In this document: positions 20,799 to 63,697 of the stretch, piece by piece | Layout: each line of letters starts with the position of its first letter | How positions within the stretch are numbered: the first letter of the stretch is position 1 | DNA from: a virus | Taxonomy: Duplodnaviria > Heunggongvirae > Uroviricota > Caudoviricetes | Strand: one strand, 5' to 3' | IMG/VR virus record: IMGVR_UViG_2791355382_000001 | Coordinates: 1-64,000 of that record | Length of the DNA: 64,000 nucleotides | Program-made: the position numbers and the translations under genes | Notes under the pieces: generated by a model | What the model saw: the letters and a program-made list of their open reading frames with translations, nothing else | Database searches by the model: none | Told to the model about the DNA's origin: nothing

Positions 20799-21017
20799 TA
20801 TTTGTTGTGGCAAGCTTTATTAATGCAAATAAAAAACACCTATCAACTAGGTGCCTCGTACATGTCGACATTGTACAGAGTAGACAGTGCATTTCTGCCT
20901 GCGATTATATTATTACTATTTTTTCATTCAATTGTCAATAAAAAAGCTTGATCCACAGCTAGATGTAGCTATGGTTTTAGGTTTTAATATTTATATTTAA
21001 ATAAACGAATATATGAC

Positions 21018-21328
21018 CTGTCTTTGCCTATGTCATTCTGGCTAAGTTCAAAACCTTTCTTTTAGGAGTCTTACACCTATATCACTCAGTTAGGTTCAGA
21101 ACACAACTTTATCTTGAGAAATACGTTTCTTTGGTCTTACACCTATGTCATTTAACTTAGGTTCAGAATAAAGAATGACTTAAAAGTCCCTTATTTAAAG
21201 TCTTGCACCTATGCCATTTAACCAAAGTCTTGCACCTATGCCATTTAACCTAGGTTCAGAACGTGGCGGTAGCGAAAGCAACTCATACCAAGGTCTTGCA
21301 CCTACATCAATTCAACTAGGCTCAGAAC
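21018..21328. CRISPR. CRISPR-type array 1: 5 repeats of GTCTT(A/G)CACCTATG(T/C)CATTTAAC(C/T)TAGGTTCAGAAC (one truncated at 21200-21226) plus a degenerate distal repeat at 21018-21053
   Basis: Read directly. Repeats at 21068-21102, 21134-21169, 21200-21226 (truncated), 21227-21262 and 21293-21328. Unique 30-31-nt spacers at 21103-21133, 21170-21199 and 21263-21292. The conserved element begins at 21329. Confidence 0.85.
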
Positions 21329-21467
21329 CATTGTTTCCTAACCTATATTTAATTGTGACATAAGCTTCTTGGGAACTCTTCGGACTTGCGACACCTTACT
21401 GTTAGATTAACTAACTGGTATTGTAGAGGTTAAAGATATTGGCCAAGCTGTCGAGAACAAGCGTCCT
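21329..21467 (-). ncRNA. conserved array-adjacent element, copy A (CRISPR leader or omegaRNA/tracr-like scaffold); the only complete copy with no tRNA-like module
   Basis: About 140 nt, roughly 80-90% identical to copies at 22367-22506, 24668-24806, 25542-25690, 32192-32318 and 33375-33500. All end ...CCAAGCTGTCGAGAACAAGCGTCCT. Orientation is assumed from the copy abutting the TnpB-like gene. Confidence 0.6.
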
Positions 21468-22132
21468 TCAAATTTTATTATCTAACGCTCAAATAACACT
21501 TCAAACATGAGCTTTCACTCTGCTTATATGTGCTACCGCTTATTATGCGAACGTTTCAAAAGGTCTGAGCAACAAGGAGCTACCTTGCTACTTCCTTTTG
21601 CCTTAAATAACGTGGCTACTATGATAAGTACCAACTTTCAGGCAATCATTCAGAACTTTGTTTTTATTTTAATCTTAATTGTTGTATGTGGATTTCAAGT
21701 CCAAGACAACAATTACTGTCTGTAATCTTGATGCCATTGCCCTACTTGTTCTTGTTTCCGTTGTTATAGCTCAGTTTCCTAAGCGTCAAGGCAAACACTG
21801 TCTTTGGTTATTCCCATCTCACCACCTAGCTACCACCCTAAGCTGCCAATGGGTTATTCTCACACCGTGAGCGTCTATTTTATCCAGTGCCAACGGTCAA
21901 CAAAGCACTAACGTCACACACTTCCACATACGCACCAAACGTCCTAGCTTTTACCAGGTTTGATAGTTATTGCTAATAATCTCTCGACTTATCTAAGCTA
22001 TCACTCAGACTACATCTACTACGAATTACAGGTACATATCCGACAAGATTTGACTAAAACCCTTATGCAATCGGTTATGCTTGAAGCGTTATTTGAACGG
22101 TAAATAATTTCTGATTCTGGATCCTCTATATA

Positions 22133-22366
22133 GCCTTACACCTATGTCATTTAACCTAGATTCAGAACTTTTAGCAACGATGTCATAATCAGTTTTCTGT
22201 CTTGTACCTATGTCATTTAACTTAGGTTCAGAACTATATTATCCAGGACTTGGAGTTCAAGTAGGTCTTACACCTATGCCATTTAACTTAGGTTCAGAAC
22301 TACTCTCCAAATACCTTATTTCCACTACAAGTCTTACACCTATGCCATTTAACTTAGGTTCAGAAC
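22133..22366. CRISPR. CRISPR-type array 2 (4 repeats, 3 spacers of 30 nt)
   Basis: Repeats at 22133-22168 (distal variant GCCTTACA...), 22199-22234, 22265-22300 and 22331-22366. Spacers at 22169-22198, 22235-22264 and 22301-22330. Confidence 0.9.
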
Positions 22367-22506
22367 CTTTGTTTTCTAACCTATATTTAATTGTGACACA
22401 AGTTTCTTGGGAACTCTTCAGACTTGCGATGTCTTACCGTTAAATTAACCATCGACACACCGTAGAGGTTAAAGATGTTTACCAAGCTGTCGAGAACAAG
22501 CGTCCT
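22367..22506 (-). ncRNA. conserved array-adjacent element, copy B. It lies directly downstream of the TnpB-like gene's 3' end, separated only by the tRNA-like module
   Basis: Conserved sequence. Its array-proximal roughly 35 nt (TTTTCTAACCTATATTTAATTGTGACACAAG) resemble a degenerate repeat. Together with 22511..22571 it forms an omegaRNA-like 3' unit of the TnpB-like gene. Confidence 0.6.
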
Positions 22507-22510
22507 CCTA

Positions 22511-22571
22511 TAACGATGGCAGGAGTTGAACCTGCATCTGTTACCTTGCCTTACCGTTAGGCTACATCGCT
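22511..22571 (-). ncRNA. tRNA-like minihelix lacking the anticodon arm; overlaps the last 15 nt of the TnpB-like CDS
   Basis: Minus-strand read: acceptor stem AGCGATG/CATCGTT, D-arm GCCT-AACGGTA-AGGC, a 13-nt linker in place of the anticodon stem-loop, a canonical T-arm GCAGG-TTCAACT-CCTGC, discriminator A, and no encoded CCA. Confidence 0.6.
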
Positions 22572-24044
22572 ACTTGTTTCTTCTTTAGGTGTGGTTTTAT
22601 TTTTAGCTCCACACTTAGTACATGTCCACTTTTCATCTTGTGTGATAACCGTACGTTCATGCCCACATTTCTTGCAAGTATCATTCATCTTATCAAGCAA
22701 GTCTAAACCTTCATCTAAGATGTTTTTAGCTGCGTTAATATCTTGATCGTGGTGTGAATTACAGATAGGACAAGTCCACTTACGGTCGCTTAATTTAAGG
22801 TTGTGCTTAATGTAACCACAAGTATGGCAACGCTTTGAAGTTGGTGACCAACGATCAATAAACACAATCTTTTTATCAGCCCAGTCCATCATGTAAGTGA
22901 GCGTATCTCTAATTTCACGAAAGTTTGATCTAGTGATTGCTCTAGCACGGTATTTGTTCTTTTCCATGTCTGAAACAGCTAGGTCTTCCATAACGATTAC
23001 ATCATATTCATTAGCAAGCTTTGAACATGTCTTTTTAATATAGTCTTTCTTTAAGTTTTTAATACGTAAATGTAACTTAGCAATCTTCTTTTTGTTCTTT
23101 TGGTAATTGCTACGTTCAGCCAATGTAGGAACATGCTTTGGAATTAAGGCTTTTTTATTGTCTTCTTCAATGATTGCAACCTCTTTTTTCCATTGTTCAT
23201 ACTTGCGACTACGCTTTACGTTTTCTTTTTCAATCTTTTGTTCTAATTTTCTGATTTTGTCATATGGCAATTGGTATCTAGTACCATCTTGTAAAACAAT
23301 ATGACTGTTACCTGTTACGTTTAAGTCAATACCAGCTGCTAAACCAGTTCTAGGACGTTTTACTGTATGCTCAGCTTGTTCAAACACAAATGATACATAC
23401 CAAGTATCGCTGGATTCATGCTTAATTGTTACTTTATACAAACGTCCGTCACTAGGATAGTGATTAGCCATCTCAATTAAGCCTAACTTAAATCTTTTCA
23501 ATTTACCTACTCTAAGGTGCTTGCCGTCTTCACTGATTTCACAAACATGAGCGCCTGAGGTATAACTACCTTGATTTTCAACGTCCATTGTTGTTTTAAA
23601 CCTAGGAATACCAAAGTGTCTAGGGTTTTTCAAATGGTTGCTCATCGCTGTTTTTAAAGTACGTAAAGTGTAACTATACATGCTAGTATCAGCGTCTTTT
23701 AAAGTCCAACCACTTTCAAACACAGTTTCATCAGCATCGTAAATAGCCTTAGTCGAAAGTCCACGTAAACCTTTGAACAAATCACGTTGCTCTTCCCATG
23801 ACATTCTTTCAATGCGTTTATAAACTTCTTTACTTTGTTTGTTCCTAGGTAAAGCTTGAACTTCATCTAACTCACTAACTGGCTTATAAACTTCAGCTAG
23901 TAATGCGTTCCACATCTTGATATTAGCAAACATATTAAACGTTAAATATGCTTGTTGATCCTTAGTAGGATAAATTCTAATTCTACGACTTTCTAAAACT
24001 TTTTCTTCCATTTTTCTACAACTCCTTTTAAAATACCAATGCAA
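22557..24044 (-). CDS. tnpB: TnpB/Cas12-like RuvC nuclease, enlarged (495 aa) with an extra C-terminal zinc ribbon
   Basis: N-terminal RIRIYPTKDQQAYL (TnpB WED/REC signature). RuvC-I AAGIDLN, RuvC-II VIVMEDLAVSDM, Zn finger CHTCGYIKHNLKLSDRKWTCPIC, RuvC-III HDQDINAAKNI, and an additional CKKCGH...CTKCG ribbon. The REC-like region before RuvC-I is about 245 aa, longer than canonical TnpB. Confidence 0.85.
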   Translation of the reverse strand: MHWYFKRSCRKMEEKVLESRRIRIYPTKDQQAYLTFNMFANIKMWNALLAEVYKPVSELDEVQALPRNKQSKEVYKRIERMSWEEQRDLFKGLRGLSTKAIYDADETVFESGWTLKDADTSMYSYTLRTLKTAMSNHLKNPRHFGIPRFKTTMDVENQGSYTSGAHVCEISEDGKHLRVGKLKRFKLGLIEMANHYPSDGRLYKVTIKHESSDTWYVSFVFEQAEHTVKRPRTGLAAGIDLNVTGNSHIVLQDGTRYQLPYDKIRKLEQKIEKENVKRSRKYEQWKKEVAIIEEDNKKALIPKHVPTLAERSNYQKNKKKIAKLHLRIKNLKKDYIKKTCSKLANEYDVIVMEDLAVSDMEKNKYRARAITRSNFREIRDTLTYMMDWADKKIVFIDRWSPTSKRCHTCGYIKHNLKLSDRKWTCPICNSHHDQDINAAKNILDEGLDLLDKMNDTCKKCGHERTVITQDEKWTCTKCGAKNKTTPKEETSSDVA

Positions 24045-24119
24045 TTTATGTATAATCTTTTGGCTGACTACACTACATTAACCTTCCACAACGGACGTCT
24101 TTATTTGTGCTATCAGCAC

Positions 24120-24215
24120 TTTTTTGGGAACTCTTCAACAAAGAAAAGCAACCTGCAATTCTTTGCTTGCGAAGATGTTTACCAAACTGTGAAGAGCAAG
24201 CACCCTCCTATAACG
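24120..24215 (-). ncRNA. partial copy C' of the conserved element (tRNA-proximal about 95 nt only), immediately upstream of the TnpB-like gene's 5' end
   Basis: Keeps GGGAACTCTTC...GATGTTTACCAAACTGTGAAGAGCAAGCACCCT but lacks the array-proximal repeat-like part. Confidence 0.45.
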
Positions 24216-24272
24216 ATGGTAGGAATCGAACCTACGTCGCCTCGCTTTGCTCTGCCATTGAGCTACATCGTT
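24211..24272 (-). ncRNA. tRNA-like minihelix lacking the anticodon arm (copy C)
   Basis: Minus-strand read: AACGATG-TA-GCTC-AATGGCA-GAGC-A-[13 nt AAGCGAGGCGAC...]-GTAGG-TTCGATT-CCTAC-CATCGTT-A. Canonical D- and T-arms with a 13-nt linker instead of the anticodon arm. Confidence 0.6.
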
Positions 24273-24302
24273 ATTTTGACTTTAATTAAGCCCATGATTT
24301 CA

Positions 24303-24667
24303 GTCTTACACCTATGTCATTTAACCTAGGTTCAGAACTGTGAATTATAATCACTCACATAAACGTGAGTCTTACACCTATGTCAATTCAACTAGGTTCA
24401 GAATCCAAGTCGGCTTGTGAGTGTATGGAAGATAGTCTTACACCTATGTCATTTAAACTAGGTTCAGAACGATCTCCCAAGCGAAGGAATCGAAGGCATG
24501 GTCTTACACCTATGTCATTTAAACTAGGTTCAGAACTATGCTCTAAAGCTCTGAATGTTTTTCTTGGTCTTACACCTATGTCATTTAACTTAGGTTAAGA
24601 ACGTAGGACTGTCATACCTATTCCCAATACGAGTCTTACACCTATGTCATTCAACTAGGTTCAGAAC
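24303..24667. CRISPR. CRISPR-type array 3 (6 repeats, 5 spacers of 30 nt)
   Basis: Repeats at 24303-24338, 24369-24404, 24435-24470, 24501-24536, 24567-24602 and 24633-24667 (the last is a 35-nt variant). All spacers are unique. Confidence 0.9.
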
Positions 24668-24806
24668 CATTGTTTCCTAAACTATATTTAATTGTGACAT
24701 AAGCTTCTTGGGAACTCTTCAGACTTGCGATGTCTTATTGCTAGATTAACTAACTGACAACGTAGAGGTTAAAGATGTTTACCAAGCTGTCGAGAACAAG
24801 CGTCCT
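24668..24806 (-). ncRNA. conserved array-adjacent element, copy D
   Basis: Sequence conservation with the other copies. A tRNA-like minihelix follows at 24811-24858. Confidence 0.6.
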
Positions 24807-24810
24807 CCTA

Positions 24811-25095
24811 TAGGCACTAGTGGAATTGAACCACTATTACAGTAACCATACGTGCCAACCTACAATAAATATAAAGGAGATGCAGGCATAAATTCCTGCG
24901 ATAGATACAATGTACGCAGGGGTTAAGGAGAAACCCCCTATTAGCACTGGTAGAATCGAACTACCACTAAGCAACCATGCGTGCTAACCTTGAGTAAATC
25001 ATTCAGTACAATCACACCGCCGCCACGAACCCTAGATGGCGGCAATAAGCATAGCTAGAATCGAACTAACTTTTATTCCAAAATGCTTAGATTTG
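24811..25095 (-). repeat. cluster of three tRNA-like minihelices (T-arm plus acceptor stem; 24811-24858, 24939-24990, 25045-25088) with GC hairpin GCCGCCACGAACCCTAGATGGCGGC at 25018-25042
   Basis: On the minus strand each reads GGCAC...[about 15 nt]...TGGTAG-TTCGATT-CTACCA...GTGCC, i.e. a T-loop consensus GTTCGATTC closed by a 5-7-bp acceptor-like stem. The 25045-25088 unit plus the GC hairpin is repeated at 33040-33120. Confidence 0.5.
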
Positions 25096-25109
25096 CTAAG
25101 TCATGATAA

Positions 25110-25541
25110 GTCTTACACCTATGCCAATTCAACTAGGTTCAGAACTAGTATATATGCAGATGAGCCGCTAGTACTGTCTTCAACCTATGTCATTTAGCCT
25201 AGGTTCAGAACAGGACTTCACCACCGTCTTCTAACTTTCGCGTCTTATACCTATGTCATTTAACCTAGGTTCAGAACAAAACTTGTTTACGATGCCCTCA
25301 CTACTAAGTCTTGCACCTATGTCATTTAACCTAGGTTCAGAACTATCAGCTCCAGGGAATTCAGCAGAGCCACGTCTTGCACCTATGTCATTTAACCTAG
25401 GTTCAGAACTAAAAACGATGAAAGCGATAGATGATTTCGGTCTTGCACCTATGTCATTTAACCTAGGTTCAGAACATAATATTATTGCCCAAAACGCTGC
25501 GTTCTGTCTTGCACCTATGTCATTTAACCTAGGTTCAGAAC
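25110..25541. CRISPR. CRISPR-type array 4 (7 repeats, 6 spacers of 30 nt)
   Basis: Repeats at 25110-25145, 25176-25211, 25242-25277, 25308-25343, 25374-25409, 25440-25475 and 25506-25541. Spacers are unique. Confidence 0.9.
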
Positions 25542-25690
25542 CGTTATTTTCTAACATATATTTAATTGTGACATAAGTTTCTTGGGAACTCTTCAGACTT
25601 GCATAATCGTAAACAAACTAATGCAATTTGCGATTATACAGAGGCCGAAGATATTAACCAAGCTGTCAAGAACAAGCGTCCTCCAAATAG
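25542..25690 (-). ncRNA. conserved array-adjacent element, copy E
   Basis: Sequence conservation; the central part diverges (CATAATCGTAAACAAACTAATGCAATTTGCGATTATACAGAGG, similar to copy F). Followed by a tRNA-like minihelix at about 25696-25744. Confidence 0.55.
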
Positions 25691-25695
25691 CGATG

Positions 25696-25744
25696 GCAGG
25701 AGTTGCACCTGCATTGATCTACCGTTTGGCATCGCTACACATAA
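25696..25744 (-). ncRNA. tRNA-like minihelix (copy E): acceptor AGCGATG/CATCGCT, a D-loop-like remnant, T-arm GCAGG-TGCAACT-CCTGC
   Basis: Minus-strand reading; no anticodon arm. Confidence 0.5.
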
Positions 25745-26476
25745 AATGTACATAAATGAATAAAGATAAAGTTAAGATTATAAGGCTTGTGCTAATGCTT
25801 ACAGGAACGATAGAGGCTTACATGTAGTTTACTGATGTCCCTGTAGGCTTAACCCTTTGCCTTACGTTTATTATAATACACTATCTCACACTCTAAGTCA
25901 AATGTTTTTGTATACTTTTTTAAAATAAAATTCGAAAAAGTTAAAAAATAAAAAAAGCCACAAGCCTAGGTAACCCTAGATGTGACTTTCTTAACTAGAG
26001 CGAAACAAACATTAAGGAGCCTCAACTGTTTTTCGCTAGTTCTATTTTAACATAAACACTAACGTTTACAATTATCCTAATGTTTGTTTTATCATCAGTT
26101 TCTTTAACCATCTTAAAACGCTTCCTTTAATTGTTTTTCTTTACTTTTGGATCCATGCCATGTATTATTGTATATGAAAAGAGGACAAACAGGTCGCAAC
26201 TGTTTGCCCTCGAGCGTGAATGTTTAAGGCTATTGTGTGTTGGCTAATTATGATTACTTAAAATCATGATTAGCTTTTTTTATTATCCAATACGCAACGG
26301 CAACGTCTATTGTAAATAATTATGCGTAAACCTAGAAAAAGCTTGAATATCATAAAAAAAGGCTATATACTGAAAGTGTGTCGTATCAGTATATAGCCTT
26401 GTTCCTAGCCTATTTTCTAGGAACTTTTTTTTATTTATAACCAAGCATCGCACAAACGAATATCTAGTCCTTCTTC

Positions 26477-26592
26477 CTACTTTTTTTCTTGCATTTTAGC
26501 AACTTTTGCTTCAGCTTCTTCGATGGAATTAGCATTAATAATTACATTTTCGTGGACTTTACCATCTACTATATCTATTTGATACCAAGACA
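26477..26592 (-). CDS. small ORF (38 aa; MSWYQIDIVDGKVHENVIINANSIEEAEAKVAKMQEKK)
   Basis: Has an RBS GGAAGGAG. A truncated paralogue (MGWYQIDVVDGKVQ...) with the same RBS sits at 28283-28345, so the two copies bracket iscB. Confidence 0.35.
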
Positions 26593-26711
26593 TATTTCTT
26601 CACTCCTTCCCAGTCGTGTTCAATAATAATTTGGTGAGAAGTAGGATAGCCTTAGCTTGCTTAAAACAAGCTGAACTCACCACACTTCTTTTTTTATATA
26701 ATATTATTAAT

Positions 26712-28031
26712 CTATCCCATAGCATATTGCTTTTCAGTAATTGCTTGTTTTTGCCAATTATTATGATGCGATAATCTATCTAACTTAGATAAAGCCACTT
26801 TCCTATATCTATCAGATGTTGTTAGATAATTACCAAATATATCTTTAATATAACAAGACGATTGACTAAATCCACTAATATAACCTTTCTTGTTACTATC
26901 CTTGATTCTGACATAATCATTAAGCCAAAAACCTTTGGCATATTTAGTATTTCTAGCGTTTCTTTTACTTGTTATATTAGGTGTCTTACGACCCTTACGT
27001 GCCGTAGCCTCATGTAAGGAACGCTTTTTCTTTCTAAATTGCTTAAACATCATAATGCTAGTTGGTTTTGCTTTGATTTTTTTAATGCCACTAATTGCTA
27101 CAGCGTCATTATAGTGGGACTTGGTTAATTCTAAATCGACTCGCTGTAATGTTGTCCATGCTCCATACTGAAATTTAGCTTGTGGGAAAGAAGTAAATAG
27201 TCTTCTTCTTAGAATGTTCATGAAAGTCGCACCTTTATAAGACTTGTTGACTTTCTTTTTATCCTTACACCACTTAGCTAAGATTCCACTTTGATGGTTT
27301 TTAGTTGTATGACACTTAGAACATACGGTAATTAGATTATCTATGGTATTAGTTCCACCTAAGGAGCGATAGATAATATGGTGGATTTTGAGTTTACCAC
27401 CCTTTTTTTTACATACTTGACAAGTATAGTTATCTCTAGCCAAAACAAATTGTTTAACAGTTTGATAACCGTATAAATCACCTTGCTGATAACCCTCACC
27501 ATTTATTGCTGGATTCTTCATTTTTTGCATATCAAACTTACCAACTTCGATATGTAAATCAGCTTTAGGTAGAACTGATAATAATCTTTTTATCCAGTTG
27601 ATATTATGGTTAACCTTACTTGCCACTGATGGTGGCAACCAGTTATCTTTTTTACTAGCTATACGGTTTAAAAACCTCGCTTTACGATAACGTGTCTTAC
27701 GATTACGTCGACTTCTACGGTATATTCTTCTAGTATCTATCAGTTTTTTAACATCTTGTCTTAACTCTACTTCGCCTTGAAATAAGACTTTATCTTGGCT
27801 TGTAACAGCTAAACCAATATGTCGTTGACCGCTATCAATTCCAATACTTACATCTTGTTTATAGCCAGTTGAACCATATAAGAGCTGAATGGTAAAAGGC
27901 TCTTTTTTTAAGACTTTTGCTTTACCATCTCTCAACAAAATTCTAGCTTTTCTAGGTTTACATGGCATTAGTGCTTTACCATGTTTATTAATGACAAAAA
28001 CTCGGTTTTGCATAGTTTGTACTCCTTCCAT
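26712..28031 (-). CDS. iscB: IscB (OMEGA RNA-guided nuclease; RuvC split by an HNH insert, N-terminal PLMP domain)
   Basis: PLMP motif KALMPCKPRKARILLRDGKAKV. RuvC-I SIGIDSGQRHIGLAV. HNH HHIIYRSLGGTNTIDNLITVCSKCH with flanking CQVC and CSKCH. RuvC-III KSHYNDAVAISGI. Confidence 0.85.
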   Translation of the reverse strand: MEGVQTMQNRVFVINKHGKALMPCKPRKARILLRDGKAKVLKKEPFTIQLLYGSTGYKQDVSIGIDSGQRHIGLAVTSQDKVLFQGEVELRQDVKKLIDTRRIYRRSRRNRKTRYRKARFLNRIASKKDNWLPPSVASKVNHNINWIKRLLSVLPKADLHIEVGKFDMQKMKNPAINGEGYQQGDLYGYQTVKQFVLARDNYTCQVCKKKGGKLKIHHIIYRSLGGTNTIDNLITVCSKCHTTKNHQSGILAKWCKDKKKVNKSYKGATFMNILRRRLFTSFPQAKFQYGAWTTLQRVDLELTKSHYNDAVAISGIKKIKAKPTSIMMFKQFRKKKRSLHEATARKGRKTPNITSKRNARNTKYAKGFWLNDYVRIKDSNKKGYISGFSQSSCYIKDIFGNYLTTSDRYRKVALSKLDRLSHHNNWQKQAITEKQYAMG

Positions 28032-28330
28032 TTTTTATAAGGTATCTATGACCTTATCACGTATTTATCAGAGTTAATAAATACATGTTCTTACCCTTCG
28101 ACAATGTTATCTCAGCTTATAAACAAGGTTGACTAGCACATTAACCTTATGCTTGTTTACAGAGCCTTCATAGAGCTAGAAACTAGGGTATCATTTCTAG
28201 GTATGATCACTGAAATAACGTAGTTACTTAAAACTTAGTCTAGACAACAAGGCTTGTAGTTTATTGCTACAAGTCACCTACTTTAGTAGGTGGTTACTGT
28301 TGACTGCACTTTTCCGTCTACCACGTCGAT
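28032..28330 (-). ncRNA. candidate IscB omegaRNA region (upstream of iscB, same strand)
   Basis: The position matches known IscB omegaRNAs (5' of iscB). Contains stable hairpins (CTAGAAACTAGGGTATCATTTCTAG; TAGGTGGTTACTGTTGACTGCACTTTTCCGTCTACCAC). Called from position and structure only. Confidence 0.3.
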
Positions 28331-29105
28331 TTGGTACCAACCCATATTTCTTCACTCCTTCCAAGCCGTTTTCAAAGTATTTAAAGCGTTCGTAATAGCT
28401 TAAGTATCGGCTCTTTTTAACTTCTAAATTTCTAGGGTTAACTTTTAGTTTAGCTACCCAATCACCCTTACGTTGATAGTTACTACAGATGTGTATGTTT
28501 TCTTGTGGATCATCATCTTTAACGTAAGGCATACCTACATGTTCAAGCGTAATGTCTTTTAAGCCAAACTTAGTAGCGTAGAATCCATGTTCAATTCGGC
28601 CACGATAAGTGCCTACCATCGCAGTAAAATGAATGGTATCACCAACTGAGATGTAAATAGTTTGATCATCGTTGCCTTCAAAGTTGGTAATATCAGAAAA
28701 TCTAATCCATAAATGAGTGGCTAGTTTTCTGAACATATCAACTCTAGTTGCACCTTGCGTGTACTTGTATTCACTGAAATACGATTGTTCAACCAACAGT
28801 TGGCTATTCCATGGATCTTCAGGATCAATTTTAATGTCAGACACGATTGCAAATACGTCTAATTTAGTGTTGACGTAATCTTGTAAAACAAAGCGACTAG
28901 AGCTTTTTTCAGGCTTTGTTTGTAGTAAGAGTGCAGCTGTAGCTATTCTAGCTTGATTAGCATTTTGCTTGACTTCCTTGTAACCACTTAGGATAAAACC
29001 AAACGGTGAATGGTGCTTATCAGCGGTTGGAATTTTAGGAACAGCTTGCTTTTGCTCTTGTTTTTTATCTTTCTTTAAGCGTTTAATATACTTCTTTTTG
29101 TCCAT
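28278..29105 (-). CDS. hypothetical protein (275 aa), downstream partner of the Panacea-domain gene; putative toxin
   Basis: ORF 22 nt downstream of the Panacea-domain gene in the same operon. No motif recognised. Confidence 0.4.
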   Translation of the reverse strand: MDKKKYIKRLKKDKKQEQKQAVPKIPTADKHHSPFGFILSGYKEVKQNANQARIATAALLLQTKPEKSSSRFVLQDYVNTKLDVFAIVSDIKIDPEDPWNSQLLVEQSYFSEYKYTQGATRVDMFRKLATHLWIRFSDITNFEGNDDQTIYISVGDTIHFTAMVGTYRGRIEHGFYATKFGLKDITLEHVGMPYVKDDDPQENIHICSNYQRKGDWVAKLKVNPRNLEVKKSRYLSYYERFKYFENGLEGVKKYGLVPNRRGRRKSAVNSNHLLK

Positions 29106-29127
29106 TAATCACCACTCCTTTTTTTAG

Positions 29128-29679
29128 TTAGTTTTCACTTGAATCAACCGTTAGTAGCCACTTTTGATTATCGGCAAAGCATTGCTCAATTTCAGAGTTT
29201 GTGTATTCTGCGTATTCGTATGTTCTTCTATGCCCTAATATTTCACTAAGTTCGTTTATAACAGGGTCTTTGTGAGTCCTATGGTTTATGATAACTTTGC
29301 CTAACTGCCAACTCGGCTTAGAAATCAAGGCTTGAGTGACCTTTTCTAATTCTTTTACTTGAGCTTCAGGCAAGCCTACTTTTGCTTGATAAGTCTTGAT
29401 TAGAGAAAAATGTGACAATTCAAGCACTATTTTAGGACTTGTGATGTTCCCTGGCCCATAAAATTTAAACTCCCTAATAATTTCTTCGTTGAGTACACCG
29501 TGGGGATAACTCTTAAACTCACAATCCATTAACGGTTGTTTGTGCTTATCTAAATAATATCCTTGCAAGAAAAACAGGACTTTACAAAGCTTGAGATAGC
29601 TTAGGTCTTGCTTTTGTTTTAACGCTAATTCGATAGCAAAGTTAGCTACAGCCATCGTAGTTTGAGTCTTTATTTCCAT
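29128..29679 (-). CDS. Panacea-domain (DUF4065) protein, putative antitoxin
   Basis: LSYLKLCKVLFFLQGYYLDKHKQPLMDCEFKSYPHGVLNEEI fits the Panacea/SocA-like pattern (KLQKLLYFAQ...GxPLF...WxxGPV). Confidence 0.55.
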   Translation of the reverse strand: MEIKTQTTMAVANFAIELALKQKQDLSYLKLCKVLFFLQGYYLDKHKQPLMDCEFKSYPHGVLNEEIIREFKFYGPGNITSPKIVLELSHFSLIKTYQAKVGLPEAQVKELEKVTQALISKPSWQLGKVIINHRTHKDPVINELSEILGHRRTYEYAEYTNSEIEQCFADNQKWLLTVDSSEN

Positions 29680-29687
29680 AAAACCAC

Positions 29688-29882
29688 CTACTTTGCTAAA
29701 TAGTCTTTTACGCTGTCACTAGCAGCTTGGTCTAACTTACGTCTGTGATATAGTCGATTACCCATGCACCAAGGACAAGTTCCATGGTTACGGCAAGTTT
29801 GGTCTACAGCTTTTGAGCCGTAATAAGGTTTGCGATGTTCTTTTCCATGTTTGATTGCTTTTTCTAGTCCCATATAAATCAC
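29688..29882 (-). CDS. small CxxC protein (64 aa)
   Basis: CRNHGTCPWC; in the operon just upstream of the Panacea-domain gene. Confidence 0.35.
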   Translation of the reverse strand: MIYMGLEKAIKHGKEHRKPYYGSKAVDQTCRNHGTCPWCMGNRLYHRRKLDQAASDSVKDYLAK

Positions 29883-29902
29883 CTCTTTTTGGCAACACTA
29901 AC

Positions 29903-30970
29903 CTAAGCCACAGCGTATTGTGGTTTAGTTCCAAAACTAGTTAAGCTATTGACTTCAATCAGTTCATCTTGAGCTAATTCAAAGTTGTCAGACAAGTATG
30001 TCTTAATGCTATTAGCGATGTTGTTACGAATGTAAGAATACATAAAGCTTTCAGTGTTTCTAACCTTTTCTTGACCTTTGTAAATAATTTCAGTCATTCT
30101 AATTAATGCAGACTCTAAACCTTTGATTAACAAACTGTTAGTTTCAAATCTTGTAGCTTCTTGACTTGCAGGATTGTATAACCAATTAGAACTAGATAAT
30201 AACTTATTAGTCACTTGGCTTTTAGCTTTAAAGATAGTGTTAACAATAAACTTAGCTTGCTTGTAATCACCTTGAGCTAAAACTTCAACTCTACCCCATA
30301 CAGCAGGAGTTAAAACGTTAGATATTCTGTTTTTCAAAGCTAACATAGCTGTTTTATTAACGTTGTAGTCTACCTTTGAGTCGATAGAAGAAGGAGATGG
30401 TTGATTACTAATTTTTTGTAAGTTAGGATTTGATTCATATGTTTCATTTGTATTATTATATATATCTCTCTTAGAGTCTTTCTCACTTATAGGATTATTT
30501 TTCATGCCTGTAGCTGAATTATCTTCACTCACGTACTGGCCAATTATTCTAACAAGGTCTTCATTAACGTTATTACTATCGTTGATACTATTACTTTTAT
30601 CAGTACTTTTAACCTTTTTTTGAACGCTTGCTTGTGGTTCATGCACATAGATTTTGTAATGCTTTAAGCCAAGTCTTTTTACACTGATTAAGCCATGGTT
30701 AACTAACTCTTTACGTAACTTAGATACAGTTCTGCTAGTTGTACGTACTTTTTCAGCTGCTTCTTCATTAGTGAAGATAATGTATGGATTACCTTTTTCA
30801 TCAACAAAATCTTTATTTCCATTTTTAGCGCTATTAATAGAGCAAGTTAAACGTCTTGCATAAAGTGAATATAACAAGATTGATAGACCGCTTAAGTCTT
30901 TGTATTTTTCATCTTCAATTAATGTATCTGATACTTTTGTAAATGTTCCTTCAACGTTAGTTTTAGTCAT
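29903..30970 (-). CDS. RepA_N-family replication initiator
   Basis: N-terminal LSILLYSLYARRLTCSINSAKNGNKDFVDEKGNPYIIFTNEEAAEKVRTTSRTVSKLRKELVNHGLI matches the firmicute plasmid RepA_N winged-helix pattern (LSAKNGW.DE.G.VYIIFT.EE...). Confidence 0.7.
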   Translation of the reverse strand: MTKTNVEGTFTKVSDTLIEDEKYKDLSGLSILLYSLYARRLTCSINSAKNGNKDFVDEKGNPYIIFTNEEAAEKVRTTSRTVSKLRKELVNHGLISVKRLGLKHYKIYVHEPQASVQKKVKSTDKSNSINDSNNVNEDLVRIIGQYVSEDNSATGMKNNPISEKDSKRDIYNNTNETYESNPNLQKISNQPSPSSIDSKVDYNVNKTAMLALKNRISNVLTPAVWGRVEVLAQGDYKQAKFIVNTIFKAKSQVTNKLLSSSNWLYNPASQEATRFETNSLLIKGLESALIRMTEIIYKGQEKVRNTESFMYSYIRNNIANSIKTYLSDNFELAQDELIEVNSLTSFGTKPQYAVA

Positions 30971-30985
30971 ATTAAAACTTCCTTT

Positions 30986-31258
30986 CTAGTATTCGTCATC
31001 GTCTTCTTCATCATCTTCATCAAACAAGTCATGAATGCCTAAATTATCAAGTAACAAACTTGCGATTAAGATTTTTACTTCTTCGTGTAATGGCTCAAAC
31101 AAAGATGTGATAACCCTAATAGTTGTTTCAGGGCTTAGTTGACCTTCCATCATAGTTCTTTCGCCTTTTCTAAGTACCATTAAAGTTTCTTCGTAGCCTG
31201 CGTCTTGGAGTAATTTAGTAGTTTCATCAGCAATTTTTTTAATTTCGCTTGAACTCAT
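30986..31258 (-). CDS. hypothetical acidic protein (90 aa)
   Basis: ORF with a poly-D/E C-terminus. Confidence 0.35.
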   Translation of the reverse strand: MSSSEIKKIADETTKLLQDAGYEETLMVLRKGERTMMEGQLSPETTIRVITSLFEPLHEEVKILIASLLLDNLGIHDLFDEDDEEDDDEY

Positions 31259-31274
31259 GTATAAACCTTCCTTC

Positions 31275-32030
31275 TTAATCTATGTTTTCTTGGTAAGAAT
31301 CGTATTTCCAAATGTAAGTCCAACGATCGTCTACCCATTCTCGTTCACGTAGAATCGTACCTTGGTTGTCTAGCATTGTGTACTTCCAATGTAAACCATC
31401 GTTTTCTCTCCAAACAAACGCTAACCAGATAATGTCTTGCTTGTTGGACATACGTAAGATATAAGTTTCAAACGTGTTCATTGGTGTACGGTTTAGCCAA
31501 CTGTCAAAATCAATAAGTAAACCCTTGTGCCTTTCAATGCCTGTAATCTGCGATGAAATTAAGTGTGTTCTATCAACGTGATTAGGGCTTAGGCTACCTG
31601 GAATCTTAGAGTTAGGATTTTCTGAATTTAAGTCAGCTACAATGTAGGACTCATGCTTAACTCTTTGGCTTTTAGTAGCGCTTTTTTCAATTGCAGGAAA
31701 ATGACCCCTAGCATTTTTACCATTCCTTTTTCGCCAAGCTTCTCTAAACTTTTCTTCACTGTCGATACCGTTAGCAATCAAGTCTAAATAATCTCGGTTA
31801 TAAGCAAAGCCTGTGTTTTGTTTTACGTACACACAAGCTACGTGATGCGTTGGTGTATGCTGCCACAAAACCGTGTTAGGATCTACTTGATTGATGTATT
31901 TTAAAGCCTTAGATAAGCTAAAAATATTGGCACTGGTTACTTCATATACGTCAGTGCCACCGTTATTAACATTGTTTAAAATTGCGTTGAATTTTTTGAT
32001 TGCATAATCTCGAGTAATGATTTTGCTCAC
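31275..32030 (-). CDS. DNA/RNA non-specific endonuclease (NucA/EndA-like, DRGH-type)
   Basis: HVDRTHLISSQITG resembles the DRGH active-site motif. 251 aa. Located immediately downstream (minus strand) of array 5 and element F. Confidence 0.5.
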   Translation of the reverse strand: MSKIITRDYAIKKFNAILNNVNNGGTDVYEVTSANIFSLSKALKYINQVDPNTVLWQHTPTHHVACVYVKQNTGFAYNRDYLDLIANGIDSEEKFREAWRKRNGKNARGHFPAIEKSATKSQRVKHESYIVADLNSENPNSKIPGSLSPNHVDRTHLISSQITGIERHKGLLIDFDSWLNRTPMNTFETYILRMSNKQDIIWLAFVWRENDGLHWKYTMLDNQGTILREREWVDDRWTYIWKYDSYQENID

Positions 32031-32058
32031 TTCCTTATCTAAGCTATCTATAATTACA

Positions 32059-32191
32059 GTCTAAGGCTTATGCCAGTTTAATTCTCTTTCAATCCTAGTC
32101 TTAGCACTTATGCCGTTCTAACTAGATTCAGAACTTTTTGAAAATAGATATTTTAGTCTTCAACCTACGTCATTTCAGCTAGGCTCAGAAC
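32059..32191. CRISPR. CRISPR-type array 5 (degenerate: about 3 decayed repeats, 1 short spacer)
   Basis: Repeat-like copies at 32059-32094, 32098-32134 and 32157-32191 with strong divergence. It abuts element F at 32192. Confidence 0.55.
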
Positions 32192-32318
32192 CTATATTAA
32201 ATTGTGACATAAGCTTCCTGGGAACTCTTTAGACTTACATAATTGCTAACTAACTAATGCAAGTTGCGATTATGCAGAGGTTAGAGATGTTTACCAAGCT
32301 GTCAAGAACAAGCGTCCT
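32192..32318 (-). ncRNA. conserved array-adjacent element, copy F (array-proximal part shortened)
   Basis: Sequence conservation; ends ...CCAAGCTGTCAAGAACAAGCGTCCT. Confidence 0.55.
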
Positions 32319-32322
32319 TCAA

Positions 32323-32383
32323 TAGCGATGACAGGAGTCGAACCTGTATCTCATGCCTTGCTCTACCGTTAAGCTACATCGCT
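32323..32383 (-). ncRNA. tRNA-like minihelix lacking the anticodon arm (copy F)
   Basis: Minus-strand read: AGCGATG-TA-GCTT-AACGGTA-GAGC-[14 nt]-ACAGG-TTCGACT-CCTGT-CATCGCT-A. Confidence 0.6.
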
Positions 32384-32394
32384 ACACACACACT

Positions 32395-33125
32395 TTTTAT
32401 TAAGGGAGGAAAAAGTGTTGTACATATACATTCCGATTAGTTGGTTCGCCCTTGCGTTGGCAAAGGCTATTGGCACTGGTAGAATCGAACTACCACAAAA
32501 GCAACCATGCGTGCCAACCTTAAAAAAATAAAAAAGGAAAGATATTTTTGTTGCCCCACTAGGGTTATTTTAGCCCTTGTTTTACCAAGGAAATTAGCAC
32601 CAGTGGAGTCGAACCACTGTAAAAGCAACCGTACGTGCCAACCAAATCATAAATATTAAATCAAGGAGTTATGTTAGTTAGGATAATTATTACTATCCTA
32701 AAGAGAAAAAGTTTTGAGTTTGTAGCTTAATGCTACAATTGGCACTAACAGAATCGAACTGTTACAAGACAACCATGCGTGCCAGCCGATAAGTAACTTT
32801 TAAAAAAGGAGTAATATACAACCATTTTAGGGTTTATTCAAGCCCTATTGGTGTTAGCGGAATCGAACCACTATACAGCAACCATGCACACCAACCAATA
32901 TCTTAAGAGTTTATATAATAAGGCATTTGAGCCTAAAATAAGAGGAAATAGTTTTAGGGTTGTTATACCCTATTGGTAGCCAAGGAATCGAACCTTGATA
33001 CAACCACTCTACCAACTTATAAGTAATAGTTTTAGTGCAAGTGCGTTGCCACTACGAAGCTTAGGTAGCGGCAATAAGCATAGCTAGAATCGAACTAGCT
33101 TTTATTCCAAAATGCTTGTTAGATA
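32395..33125 (-). repeat. tandem array of six degenerate 100-130-bp units, each with a tRNA-like T-arm/acceptor minihelix (GAATCGAAC on plus strand = GTTCGATTC T-loop on minus strand)
   Basis: Minihelices end at about 32517, 32645, 32770, 32895, 33018 and 33118. Each is preceded on the plus strand by an AT-rich stretch with AAGGAG-like motifs and a TAGGGTT...AACCCTA hairpin. Confidence 0.55.
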
Positions 33126-33138
33126 AACCTGTGATAAT

Positions 33139-33374
33139 GTCTTATCTTATGCTAGTTTCAATTAGGTTCAGAACCTTTACAGTTAATAATGAATACAGTA
33201 GTAGGTGTCTTCAATCTATGTCAATTCAACTAGGTTCAGAACATGTGATGGATATGTTAATCAATGGTTGTCGTCTTGCATCTATACCATGTCAGATAGG
33301 TTCAGAACTATGGTCAAGATTATATAAAATCTAGGCATGTCTTCAACCTACGTCAATTCAATTAGGATCAGAAC
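33139..33374. CRISPR. CRISPR-type array 6 (4 repeats with drift, 3 spacers of 30-32 nt)
   Basis: Repeats at 33139-33174, 33207-33242, 33273-33308 and 33339-33374. Spacers are unique. Confidence 0.75.
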
Positions 33375-33500
33375 CTATATTTAATTGTGACATAAGCTTC
33401 TTGGGAACTTTCCATGCTTGCAATGTTTTACCGTTAGATTAACCAACGTTACACCGTAGAGGCTAGAAATATTTACCAAGTTGTCAAGAACAAGCGTCCT
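33375..33500 (-). ncRNA. conserved array-adjacent element, copy G
   Basis: Sequence conservation. A tRNA-like minihelix follows at 33505-33558. Confidence 0.55.
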
Positions 33501-33504
33501 CCAA

Positions 33505-34040
33505 TTAGCACTAACGGAATTGAACCGTTATTACAGCAACCATGCGTGCCAACTCAATAATTACTATAGAAAGGTTTTACTATGGCAAAACACTAGCATT
33601 ACCATCTTTTAGGGTTTATCCAACCCTATTGGCACTAGCGGAGCCGAACCGCTATGAAAGTAACCGTACGTGCCAGCCGTAAGTCGAATCGAATATATAA
33701 AGGAGTAAAGAGATGCGAGTGTTCGCAATCTTTTAGGGTCTGTTTCAACCCTATTGGCAGCCAAGGACTTGAACCTTGATGCAACCATTCTGCCAACCAA
33801 TTTAATTAATTCAATAAAATAAAGGAGAATAGGGTCTATGGCAACCCTATTGGCACTAACGGAATCGAACCGTTATTATAGCAACCATGCGTGCCACACC
33901 CAGTTAGTAAGTAAAGTAACATATAAAACGAAAGGAGCGATGCAAACAATGTTTGCAACCTTGAGCCAAGCTTTAGCTTAGCTCTATTAGCAGTTAGAGA
34001 ATCGAACCCTAACAAAGCAACCATGCCTGCTATAAGATGG
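33505..34040 (-). repeat. second tandem array of five tRNA-like minihelix units (100-130-bp period)
   Basis: GAATTGAACC / GAGCCGAACC / GACTTGAACC / GAATCGAACC / GAATCGAACC cores, each closed by a GGCAC...GTGCC-type stem and preceded by an AACCCTATTGGC hairpin. The ORF-track calls here (33609..33800, 33836..34075) are translation artefacts of the repeat. Confidence 0.55.
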
Positions 34041-35102
34041 CTAGAATGGTAAGTCATCGTTACTGATAAAATCATCTTTTGGTTTATTGTCAGTATAGTT
34101 ATCTAAAAAGCTTGAATAATCTTCTTTTTTTGTTTCATTTTCTGTAGCTGTAGAATTAGTATCAACTACTGGTTGATCGTTTAGAACTGATACAATCTTG
34201 CTCCAGTCTTCTGGTTGACCTAAGAATTTAGTTAATGTTTTGTTATCAACTACTCCTAAATTGCCTAATCTTTTAATTGTATTTGCTTTTACCACATTAT
34301 GAGCAAGTAGTTTAGCTAACATTTGATCGTTTTCTTCAATTTCATTTTTATAATCAGCAATCAAATCAAGAATTTTCTTAGCTTTAACATTCATTCTCTC
34401 TTTTTTTTCTTCTGATAATTCTTTCAATGAAAATTTAGGAATAAAAGATCCACCGTTGGAATTAGGTGCAAAGTATTGTTCATCACTGTTTGAAGTAAAT
34501 TCTTCAACCTTTAATAACTTACCTTTAATAAGTTCAGGTGCATTTCTAAAATCAAGATGTAATTGATTTAATAATCCAAAATACTTTTTGGGTGTAAGTT
34601 CTAAATAAGCTAAAACAATATTATTATTGACTTTAGAAAAACTGGCTAAGTCTTCGTCTGTATTAATTAGTTTGTTATCTTTTTTAGTTAACAAACCAAA
34701 AATTCTACGTCGTTCTTTAACCTCTTCATTAGGGAAATTTTCCTTAAAGTTGTTACTACCACCTGGGTAAATACCTAAACTAGAACTTGTGCGTCCTTGA
34801 GCAGTATCTTTGTAGCGGTATAAATCATATACACCTAGCAAAGATGGATTTGAAGAAATTCCTTTATCGCTTTTAGCAACTTTAGTCATAAATAATGGAA
34901 TAAATTCATACGATTTAGCTTGAAGCATTTGTCCACGTTCTTTGTTATTTTCAGGAAATTGGATAGTTAACATACCTGATTGCCCATTATGGCGAAGATT
35001 TAAAATATCTACACCATTAGGTCTTAAAGGCACTCCTGTTCGTGTTCCTTCATCTACATTTACCATTAAAGAGTCTAGTGTGTTCATAATAAAGTCCTCC
35101 AA
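34041..35102 (-). CDS. hypothetical protein (353 aa)
   Basis: Long ORF with an RBS. A roughly 450-bp AT-rich regulatory region lies upstream. No motif recognised. Confidence 0.45.
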   Translation of the reverse strand: MEDFIMNTLDSLMVNVDEGTRTGVPLRPNGVDILNLRHNGQSGMLTIQFPENNKERGQMLQAKSYEFIPLFMTKVAKSDKGISSNPSLLGVYDLYRYKDTAQGRTSSSLGIYPGGSNNFKENFPNEEVKERRRIFGLLTKKDNKLINTDEDLASFSKVNNNIVLAYLELTPKKYFGLLNQLHLDFRNAPELIKGKLLKVEEFTSNSDEQYFAPNSNGGSFIPKFSLKELSEEKKERMNVKAKKILDLIADYKNEIEENDQMLAKLLAHNVVKANTIKRLGNLGVVDNKTLTKFLGQPEDWSKIVSVLNDQPVVDTNSTATENETKKEDYSSFLDNYTDNKPKDDFISNDDLPF

Positions 35103-63497: not shown

Positions 63498-63697
63498 AAA
63501 CATTTAAAAGGGGGGTGAGCTACACCCTTAAGCTATCAGAGTTAGTCAATGTCATTACCCTCTAGTTAGGATATGGGAATACTAGCGTTGACGGTAGTAA
63601 ATAAAATTCAGGAAAGGAAAAATATATTCTTTCTAATAATGTAGAAGGAACTACATATCTTTCTATATTATTCTACATTTTATATAGCTGTTAGCTG

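Follow-up and report, generated by a model that had tools for sequence, protein, structure and literature searches.

The 64,000-nucleotide stretch analyzed here (positions 1 to 64,000 of IMG/VR virus record IMGVR_UViG_2791355382_000001; hereafter the window) carries 18 small tRNA-like elements that preserve the top half of a tRNA and its elbow, while the decoding half has been lost uniformly. They stand among the guide-RNA scaffolds and CRISPR-like arrays of a TnpB-family nuclease, and we favor, at a probability of roughly 0.55, the reading that they are punctuation marks for RNase P and RNase Z in polycistronic operons of coding and non-coding guide-RNA modules. Unless marked as plus, every feature discussed lies on the minus strand of the 64-kb window.

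Structure of the tRNA-like elements

Four of the elements form a class of longer copies, type A, whose three full copies score 48.0 to 50.7 bits against the Rfam tRNA family RF00005 (gathering score 29). In these alignments, 7-8 nt stand in for the 17-nt anticodon arm. The minimum free energy (MFE) folds obtained with RNAfold agree, returning for all three copies an anticodon-less cloverleaf with a 7-bp acceptor stem, a 4-bp D stem, a 5-bp T stem, the D loop AAYGGYA, the T loop UUCRAYU and an unpaired linker of 12-13 nt, as compared to ~22-23 nt in a class I tRNA.

A1, 22511..22571, minus: 61 nt; RF00005 48.0 bits; R2 model 90.4 bits; MFE fold
A2, 24211..24272, minus: 62 nt; RF00005 49.5 bits
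A3, 25688..25736, minus: degenerate type A; R2 model 40.5 bits
A4, 32323..32383, minus: 61 nt, followed by scaffold S5; RF00005 50.7 bits; MFE fold

A preceding sequence-only reading of the window had already described tRNA-like minihelices at four such places, arguing that a linker of 13-14 nt is too short for an anticodon arm and that the elements are thus not decodable tRNAs. Apart from the slightly shorter linker, this description holds, and ARAGORN found zero tRNA genes, full-length ones included, over the entire window. Three of the four copies lie where they had been placed, whereas the third was set 8 nt off, at 25696-25744, and is degenerate, having lost the 5' strand of its D stem and carrying UGCAACU as its T loop. 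Chance can be excluded as the origin of the family because the T-loop motif GTTCRAYTCC occurs nine times against 0.34 expected, exclusively on the minus strand and exclusively between 22.5 and 33.9 kb.

The family turned out to be considerably larger than had been noticed. Reading the flanks revealed 14 additional, smaller elements (types B and C), 12 of which, in tandem runs at 24941-25089 and 32470-34033, had been missed altogether. Type B elements measure 42-49 nt and retain the acceptor stem, usually UUGGCAC/GUGCCAA, and the T arm (6-bp stem, GUUCGAYUC loop), with the D stem cut to a 3-bp mini stem with a YGGU loop and a linker of 5 nt. In the two type C copies, the mini D arm is swapped for an 11-nt linker containing UGGAA. 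We built a covariance model (R1) from ten copies and searched it in the window and related loci.

B1, 24811..24858, minus: type B, followed by scaffold S3; R1 71.5 bits
B2, 24941..24987, minus: type B, followed by a hairpin; R1 74.3 bits
C1, 25046..25089, minus: acceptor UAAGCAU/AUGCUUA, 11-nt UGGAA linker, T arm; R1 22.6 bits
32470..33118, minus: tandem run of six, each followed by a variable hairpin; R1 23-79 bits
B4, 32470..32517, minus: type B, in the run of six
B5, 32594..32641, minus: type B, in the run of six
B6, 32739..32785, minus: type B, in the run of six
B7, 32848..32894, minus: in the run of six
B8, 32973..33015, minus: in the run of six
C2, 33075..33118, minus: in the run of six
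33505..34033, minus: tandem run of five type B elements; R1 37-75 bits
B10, 33505..33552, minus: in the run of five, followed by scaffold S6
B11, 33629..33676, minus: in the run of five
B12, 33754..33796, minus: in the run of five
B13, 33850..33897, minus: in the run of five
B14, 33987..34033, minus: in the run of five

The R1 search returned 41 matches at E<1e-5, 35 of them distinct. Across these 35 copies, pairing holds in 97.1% of cells and both sides have changed in 12 of 16 pairs (112 cells), while control registers slid along the same sequences are only 25-55% paired. For type A copies from three strains, the paired fraction is 99%, and the D, T and acceptor stems all contain compensatory changes. 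This covariation reflects selection on RNA structure. Added together, the acceptor and T helices span the 12-13 bp usual for tRNA. Neither the GG of the D loop nor the T-loop residues vary, the anticodon domain is gone from every element, and the MFE folds are the proposed structures. It is from these paired, co-varying stems, the 12-13-bp stack and the invariant loops that we conclude that the top half and elbow have been kept and the decoding half lost. Neither A3 nor any of the 14 type B/C copies matched RF00005, even at E<=5, and no tRNA-like element matched any other Rfam family, Y RNA included, at the same cutoff. Coding on the opposite strand was considered and rejected, as plus-strand open reading frames (ORFs) in the tRNA-like islands lack conserved starts, stops or ribosome-binding sites.

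A TnpB guide-RNA locus and its relatives

The partners of the elements, described in the sequence-only reading as seven conserved elements, are, judged by sequence comparison, omegaRNA/tracr-like guide-RNA scaffolds of a distinct TnpB clade. The count of seven was accurate (six pattern matches plus a variant at 24045-24210), as was the claim that six of them are attached to a tRNA-like element, although two of these attachments, at 24811-24858 and 33505-33552, involve type B and not the class it had described. The scaffolds are ~130-165 nt long and conserved, with a co-varying long-range helix, in TnpB relatives of 47-97% protein identity.

tnpB-like gene, 22557..24011, minus: 484 aa from ATG 24011; 495 aa from TTG 24044
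S0, 21329..21470, minus: scaffold, preceded by ROOL and not by a tRNA-like element
S1, 22367..22510, minus: scaffold beginning UAGGAGGACGC, one nt past the A1 discriminator
S2v, 24045..24210, minus: variant scaffold in the tnpB 5' untranslated region (UTR), directly behind A2
S3, 24669..24810, minus: scaffold behind B1
S4, 25542..25687, minus: scaffold behind A3
S5, 32192..32322, minus: scaffold behind A4
S6, 33375..33504, minus: scaffold behind B10
array 0, 21030..21328, minus: 36-nt repeats, 30-nt spacers; a terminator-like hairpin near 20950-20985 comes next
array 1, 22133..22366, minus: 4 repeats; ROOL begins 34 nt past the last one
array 2, 24303..24668, minus: 6 repeats
array 3, 25110..25541, minus: 7 repeats
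array behind S5, 32090..32191, minus: degenerate, two repeats
array behind S6, 33150..33374, minus: 3-4 diverged repeats
ROOL RNA, 21490..22098, minus: RF03087 225 bits, full-length; between array 1 and S0
promoter-like site, 25873..25901, minus: TTGACT-17-TATTAT upstream of A3; consensus match only

The junctions between elements and neighboring RNAs are highly regular. In the window, a scaffold starts 1-4 nt past a tRNA-like discriminator in six of seven cases, and the same spacing holds for all type A matches in the window and in three related loci (L001, L002 and L020) as well as for seven type B matches (window, L001, L002 and L003). At S0, ROOL holds the position that tRNA-like elements hold elsewhere. 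Past the discriminator (A), the sequence reads UAGGAGGACGC at A1 and B1, UAGGAGGGUGC at A2, UUUGGAGG at A3, UUGGAGG at B10 and UUGAAGG at A4. CCA is encoded in none of the 18 elements; position +1 is U in all 18, position +2 is A or U, and position -1 is U in all four type A copies. Element ends coincide not only with scaffold 5' ends but also with the point where a 30-nt last spacer stops and the 3' end of tnpB: A2 starts exactly 30 nt, that is one spacer, past the last repeat of array 2 (24303-24338), and A1 covers the final 5 codons of tnpB and its stop (TAA at 22557-22559, within the A1 D arm), with S1 following immediately. C1 starts 20 nt past the last repeat of array 3, and B14 starts 8 nt past the stop of ORF 34041-35102. 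The downstream RNA, finally, always opens with a stem 2-3 nt from the putative cut, either GGAGG/CCUCU in scaffolds or a variable, co-varying hairpin.

Two units can be read off the minus strand. The first runs from the promoter-like site at 25901-25873 through A3 (the first element downstream of it), S4, array 3, C1, B2, B1, S3, array 2, A2, S2v, tnpB, A1, S1, array 1, ROOL, S0 and array 0 to the terminator-like hairpin at ~20950-20985, with no strong terminators predicted between the 25.9-kb promoter-like site and ~20950. The second (~35.2 to 32.0 kb) shares this grammar, comprising ORF 35102-34041, B14 to B10, S6 and its array, C2, B8 to B4, A4, S5, a degenerate array, ORF 32030-31275 and replication genes. 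Segments behind the scaffold-less elements measure 45-95 nt and hold five of the window's seven minus-strand CTCCTTT sites, with 15-40 nt left between the site and the element that follows. CTCCTTT is similar to an anti-Shine-Dalgarno sequence, and these segments may be tRNA-flanked small RNAs.

CTCCTTT site, 24873..24879, minus: between type B elements
CTCCTTT site, 32805..32811, minus: between type B elements
CTCCTTT site, 33699..33705, minus: between type B elements
CTCCTTT site, 33821..33827, minus: between type B elements
CTCCTTT site, 33931..33937, minus: between type B elements

The nuclease itself carries the Pfam domains OrfB_IS605 and Cas12f1-like_TNB with intact RuvC D/E/D residues; its closest solved relatives are ISDra2 TnpB (E=3e-28) and then LaTranC (E=6e-16). 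It belongs to a clade (P0001-P0023) of 47-95% identity, the next relatives standing at ~30%. The scaffold core, CTTGGTNAA..CCTCT..GTTCCCAAGAA, is common to the omegaRNAs of ordinary TnpBs borne on insertion sequences (IS) in Youngiibacter, Oceanobacillus, Bacillus and others. A loose scan of genomes for the scaffold pattern was too permissive (120+ loci), and filtering left 20 matches, mostly ordinary IS TnpB omegaRNAs, with a TnpB reading frame detected directly upstream in ten. None of the 20 has the T-loop motif in the 110 nt upstream, so the tRNA-like 5' appendage is specific to this clade.

Behind the scaffolds lie CRISPR-like arrays of 36-nt repeats and spacers of exactly 30 nt. Two segments of the scaffold 3' part can base-pair with the repeat (-22.9 kcal/mol versus -17.6 +/- 3.1 for shuffled repeats, with 17 of 300 as good), a modest effect. 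One spacer of array 3 (25212-25241) matches the circular Ligilactobacillus salivarius megaplasmid NZ_CP117984.1 at 30 of 30 positions outside any array; this protospacer (L023 1501-1530) is intergenic, downstream of ParM, and its 5' flank TTTTTG is a candidate target- or protospacer-adjacent motif (TAM/PAM). Another (25476-25505) matches many Lactiplantibacillus mobilizable plasmids at 28 of 30 positions. Searched against phages, the spacers gave no match. From the TnpB clade, the scaffolds, the arrays, the repeat pairing and the plasmid-matching spacers, we conclude that the system resembles a TranC-like TnpB-CRISPR hybrid used in plasmid-plasmid competition.

The variant scaffold S2v ends in ...AAAGAC followed by fixed sequence (window 24045-24210; compare L016 493-600). 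L016, which belongs to a lineage of 75% identity, shows the same order of tRNA-like element, variant scaffold and tnpB, with a differing but compensated acceptor stem (AACAAUG/CAUUGUU). There, the 'guide' of the variant scaffold overlaps the ribosome-binding site and start codon of tnpB. A variant scaffold in the tnpB 5' UTR may serve autoregulation.

Judged by its nearest records, the replicon is a large L. salivarius plasmid; PLSDB classes it as a linear plasmid and IMG/VR as a virus. Only one plasmid is closely related to it, NZ_CP123973.1 (L001), a linear L. salivarius 'plasmid' of 166.6 kb, and its sole close IMG/VR relative is a 180-kb contig (L002/L003), both 85-97% identical to the window and rearranged; a search of phage DNA yielded no close relatives. 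Among the neighboring genes, a domain scan identified RepA_N, ParA, FtsK/SpoIIIE-like, an IscB with HEARO RNA and two extra TnpBs. The IscB gene (RRXRR plus HNH) with its HEARO omegaRNA (118 bits) occupies 26712-28304 (minus), between both tRNA-like islands; in L016, a HEARO-like sequence stands directly behind tnpB. The two further TnpB-family ORFs, at 40713-42065 (plus) and 62331-63591 (plus), have no tRNA-like element or array nearby, and the latter is followed downstream by a Transposase-1 RNA motif (70.5 bits).

Large Lactobacillales phages carry remoter members of the TnpB clade in their tRNA islands. The order in L004 and L006 is tRNA-Arg(TCT), ROOL, scaffold, array, tnpB, an aberrant 74-nt tRNA-like element and tRNA-Ser(GCT), and both also hold type-B-like elements. 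L012 carries a type-B-like element plus hairpin upstream of its scaffold, and L009, from a lineage of 47% identity, has a TATAAT box immediately ahead of its scaffold and no tRNA-like element. Relatives handle the same scaffold boundary by other means, namely ROOL, a type-B-like element with hairpin or a TATAAT box. A metagenome scan for the T-loop-to-scaffold junction (53 loci) gave only L. salivarius-type sequences, the remainder being chance matches, and the exact mimic-scaffold design looks lineage-restricted.

Several observations on these relatives stand beside the main argument. At the start of a phage tRNA island, L012 carries a bare minihelix (699-739), a 12-bp acceptor/T arm (UUCCAGC-CUAGG-UUCGAUU-CCUAG-GUUGGAA) with neither D nor anticodon region. 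The 74-nt tRNA-shaped element directly 3' of tnpB in L004 (11433-11508, with equivalents in L006, L013, L014 and L015) has the anticodon loop CGUUAUC (G33, U37), falls under the Rfam tRNA threshold and is called 'Asp(atc)' by ARAGORN; it is probably another non-decoding mimic that keeps an anticodon-arm-like hairpin. L004, L006, L012 and L015 (for example, L004 17165-19474) encode a fused kinase-phosphatase-RNA ligase (AAA_33, Metallophos and RNA_lig_T4_1), a tRNA-repair-type enzyme, close to the tRNA/ROOL/TnpB island. In L009 (3784-8760), the most distant clade member lies in a prophage directly downstream of a 1066-aa SIR2_2 gene, and its tnpB is followed by a scaffold and then by an unlike array of 28-nt repeats (GTTAAGTCCACGCATGTGGGGAAGATTC).

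Proposed processing signals and rival explanations

In the mechanism we favor, a single minus-strand transcript would extend from the ~25.9-kb promoter to ~20.95 kb, and the second unit (~35.2-32.0 kb) would behave alike. Host RNase P would cut at the 5' end of each mimic, thereby setting the 3' end of the preceding RNA, such as a 30-nt last spacer, and host RNase Z would cut past the discriminator, leaving the next RNA with a 5'-monophosphate end and the mimic itself ready for CCA addition. The RNA released in this way would be either an omegaRNA-derived, tracrRNA-like scaffold opening with U(A/U)GGAGG or a short hairpin-headed RNA. Scaffolds would pair with the 36-nt repeats and load TnpB with 30-nt guides, at least some of which would target competing plasmids.

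The position of the RNase Z cut is proposed because CCA is not encoded and +1 is U. In Bacillota, RNase Z cuts CCA-less pre-tRNAs immediately past the discriminator (PMC1874595, PMC8549757), the sequence there being U74 A75 in Bacillus subtilis trnSL-Ala1 (PMC1874595) and the trailer of a streptococcal tRNA opening with U (PMC8549757), and RNase P may go first on precursors with long leaders (PMC1874595, PMC8549757). The +1/+2 context of our elements matches that of such precursors. Viewed in the folded models, the mimics retain only the parts that both RNases read, that is the acceptor/T stack and the T-loop/GG elbow. Each released RNA would moreover carry its own 5'-proximal stem as a shield against RNase J1; in Bacillota, a stem very near the 5' end is expected to protect 5'-monophosphate RNA against this enzyme.

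A processing signal had been suspected from the sequence alone, in the form of a device that releases the array transcript from the tnpB mRNA. The modeled anatomy fits the general idea, with its 12-13-bp stack, T loop, GG elbow, lack of CCA and boundary-matching ends. Release from tnpB mRNA is too narrow a purpose because only two of the 18 elements flank that mRNA, most stand between non-coding modules and 12 are attached to no scaffold.

Several points weigh against punctuation. An RNase P cut at A1 would deprive tnpB of its final four codons and stop, yielding a non-stop mRNA, and in this strain decay has set in at A3, which comes first behind the promoter. No scaffold stands behind 12 of the 18 elements, and in L004-type phages a tRNA-like element begins 8 nt past the tnpB stop without a scaffold behind it. 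The promoter and terminator assignments rest on consensus matches only. Furthermore, the window and L002 are 95.8% identical within elements and 91.6% between them, only a modest gap; the L001 alignment is unreliable for this comparison owing to rearrangements.

The same scaffold-free elements, including tandem runs of 5-6, lend some weight to the idea that the mimics are functional in themselves, either as stable, CCA-tailed, tRNA-shaped RNAs that bind or titrate factors reading the acceptor, T arm and elbow or as protective caps, with adjacency to scaffolds being secondary. Candidate partners would be host toxins that target tRNA 3' ends, the neighboring ROOL nanocage RNA or the CCA-adding enzyme. 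The GG D loop and T loop are the most invariant parts of the elements, and phage tRNA islands are the usual neighborhood of ROOL and GOLLD (PMC12286853), of which ROOL lies within this very operon. However, the nucleotide-exact junctions with scaffolds and spacer ends are left unexplained, no partner protein was identified in the window, and anticodon nucleases, the best-known tRNA-directed defenses, would miss these RNAs. We consider this explanation unlikely as the principal one, and it is compatible with punctuation rather than exclusive of it.

Less probable still is that the elements are decaying, functionless pseudogenes of a phage-type tRNA island, whose adjacency to scaffolds stems from duplication of whole cassettes. 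In favor of this, the same island of related phages holds a tRNA-Arg(TCT) and a tRNA-Ser(GCT) that look normal, A3 shows obvious degeneration, the number of cassettes varies among strains and several tRNA-like/scaffold units are clearly paralogous duplicates. Yet neutral decay breaks stems, and here 97-99% remain paired with many compensatory changes among paralogues; the same domain is lost every time, while the T-loop and GG residues are invariant. In addition, zero intact tRNAs are left in the window, and L016, L012 and L004 have anticodon-less forms of differing sequence.

Inter-strain rearrangement breakpoints located in these regions, together with a type-B-like element of L003 fused directly onto a repeat, could be taken to mean that the tRNA-like elements and scaffold repeats are chiefly recombination modules for the gain, loss and shuffling of scaffold-array cassettes. 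Homologous recombination, however, needs sequence identity and not base pairing, whereas covariation reports selection on RNA structure, and a dedicated recombinase is not adjacent, making this a very improbable account. Finally, relics of att sites from serial integration at tRNA 3' ends, the second possibility raised by the sequence-only reading, would leave a recurrent acceptor with the tRNA 3' part as a typical attP/attB duplication remnant, but we reject them because both acceptor strands are present and co-vary in every element where relics would hold 3' parts only, and the elements lie in one orientation inside operons, next to RNA modules rather than integrase genes or element ends.

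Setting these alternatives aside, punctuation by RNase P and RNase Z would, if confirmed, explain how a system in transition from TnpB to CRISPR obtains defined scaffold and guide ends, provide small (44-62 nt) bacterial modules with which multiplexed TnpB/Cas12 guides could be processed and assign a role to at least some of the peculiar 'pseudo-tRNAs' of phage tRNA islands carrying ROOL or GOLLD. Only tentatively do we extend it to a TnpB-derived, CRISPR-like system, borne on a large plasmid or phage-plasmid, that leaves the maturation of all its RNAs to the tRNA-processing machinery of the host via purpose-built anticodon-less mimics, including the release of short hairpin-headed RNAs with anti-Shine-Dalgarno-like CUCCUUU. 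Were this true, it would reveal a route by which early type V systems gained defined tracrRNA and crRNA ends before their own processing evolved, and would connect guide-RNA biogenesis with the ROOL and 'tRNA island' regions found in Lactobacillales phages.

Comparison with known systems

Measured against a canonical tRNA, type A shares the 7-bp acceptor stem, the D arm and the T arm with its GTTCRANYC loop, and lacks the 17-nt anticodon stem-loop. The bacterial Y RNA YrlA likewise has acceptor, D and T arms without an anticodon and is an RNase P substrate. In YrlA, however, a long Ro-binding stem replaces the anticodon arm and rsr is a neighbor; at our locus, Y RNA was without an Rfam match at E<=5, no long helix replaces the anticodon arm and no rsr-like gene was seen among the neighbors scanned.

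Among RNA-guided systems, TranC and other early type V systems (LaTranC, PDB 9jfq; bioRxiv 10.1101/2025.09.28.678669) share with the locus a TnpB-like RuvC nuclease, an omegaRNA-derived scaffold whose 3' part pairs with the repeat, and a CRISPR array. In contrast, the alignment to LaTranC covers only the RuvC/TNB region (E=6e-16), ISDra2 TnpB being nearer, and our locus holds multiple scaffold copies within a ROOL/tRNA-like island. The one TranC follow-up preprint searched (bioRxiv 10.1101/2025.09.28.678669) mentions no tRNA-like elements, and our literature searches yielded none for systems of this kind.

tRNA-shaped punctuation itself is known. In mitochondrial polycistronic transcripts, tRNA units between genes are cleavage signals (PMC3790967); these tRNAs function in decoding, whereas the L. 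salivarius plasmid elements cannot decode. Natural t-elements, in the leader of Haloferax 5S rRNA and in plant mitochondria, are described in a later paper as sites at which tRNase Z makes the 5' end of the downstream RNA (PMC4326828, citing Holzle 2008, 2012). They, too, place a tRNA-like structure immediately upstream of a non-tRNA RNA, but in another domain of life, with another downstream RNA and as single elements, compared to 18 on one replicon here.

In mascRNA/MALAT1, MEN-beta and the vtRNA-pre-miRNA transcripts of murine gammaherpesvirus 68 (MHV68), cleavage of a non-decoding tRNA mimic by RNase P and/or RNase Z serves to mature an adjacent non-coding RNA. The MHV68 transcripts have hairpins immediately behind the viral tRNA-like element, as type B elements do in the window. 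All of these are eukaryotic nuclear cases with no link to an RNA-guided nuclease, and in mascRNA a stem resembling the anticodon arm persists.

For tRNA-like elements with TnpB or CRISPR, the literature we searched holds engineered tRNA-flanked guide RNAs only, with no natural example found, and for TnpB, TranC or ROOL, it holds only the remark that ROOL lies near tRNA islands. We found no report of the natural use of tRNA-shaped punctuation by an RNA-guided nuclease system. Polycistronic tRNA-gRNA (PTG) arrays are engineered tRNA-flanked guide RNAs for multiplexed expression. Complementarily, an engineered Haloferax icrRNA flanked by t-elements showed that such elements work around a crRNA (PMC4326828). 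Both designs place guides between tRNA-shaped elements from which RNase P and RNase Z release them with defined ends and without Cas processing. They are man-made, however, and use full tRNAs or an archaeal t-element, whereas the L. salivarius locus is natural, bacterial and plasmid- or phage-borne, and deploys two anticodon-less designs that flank tracr-like scaffolds and whole arrays instead of single guides. If our reading is correct, the locus would be a natural counterpart of synthetic tRNA-gRNA arrays.

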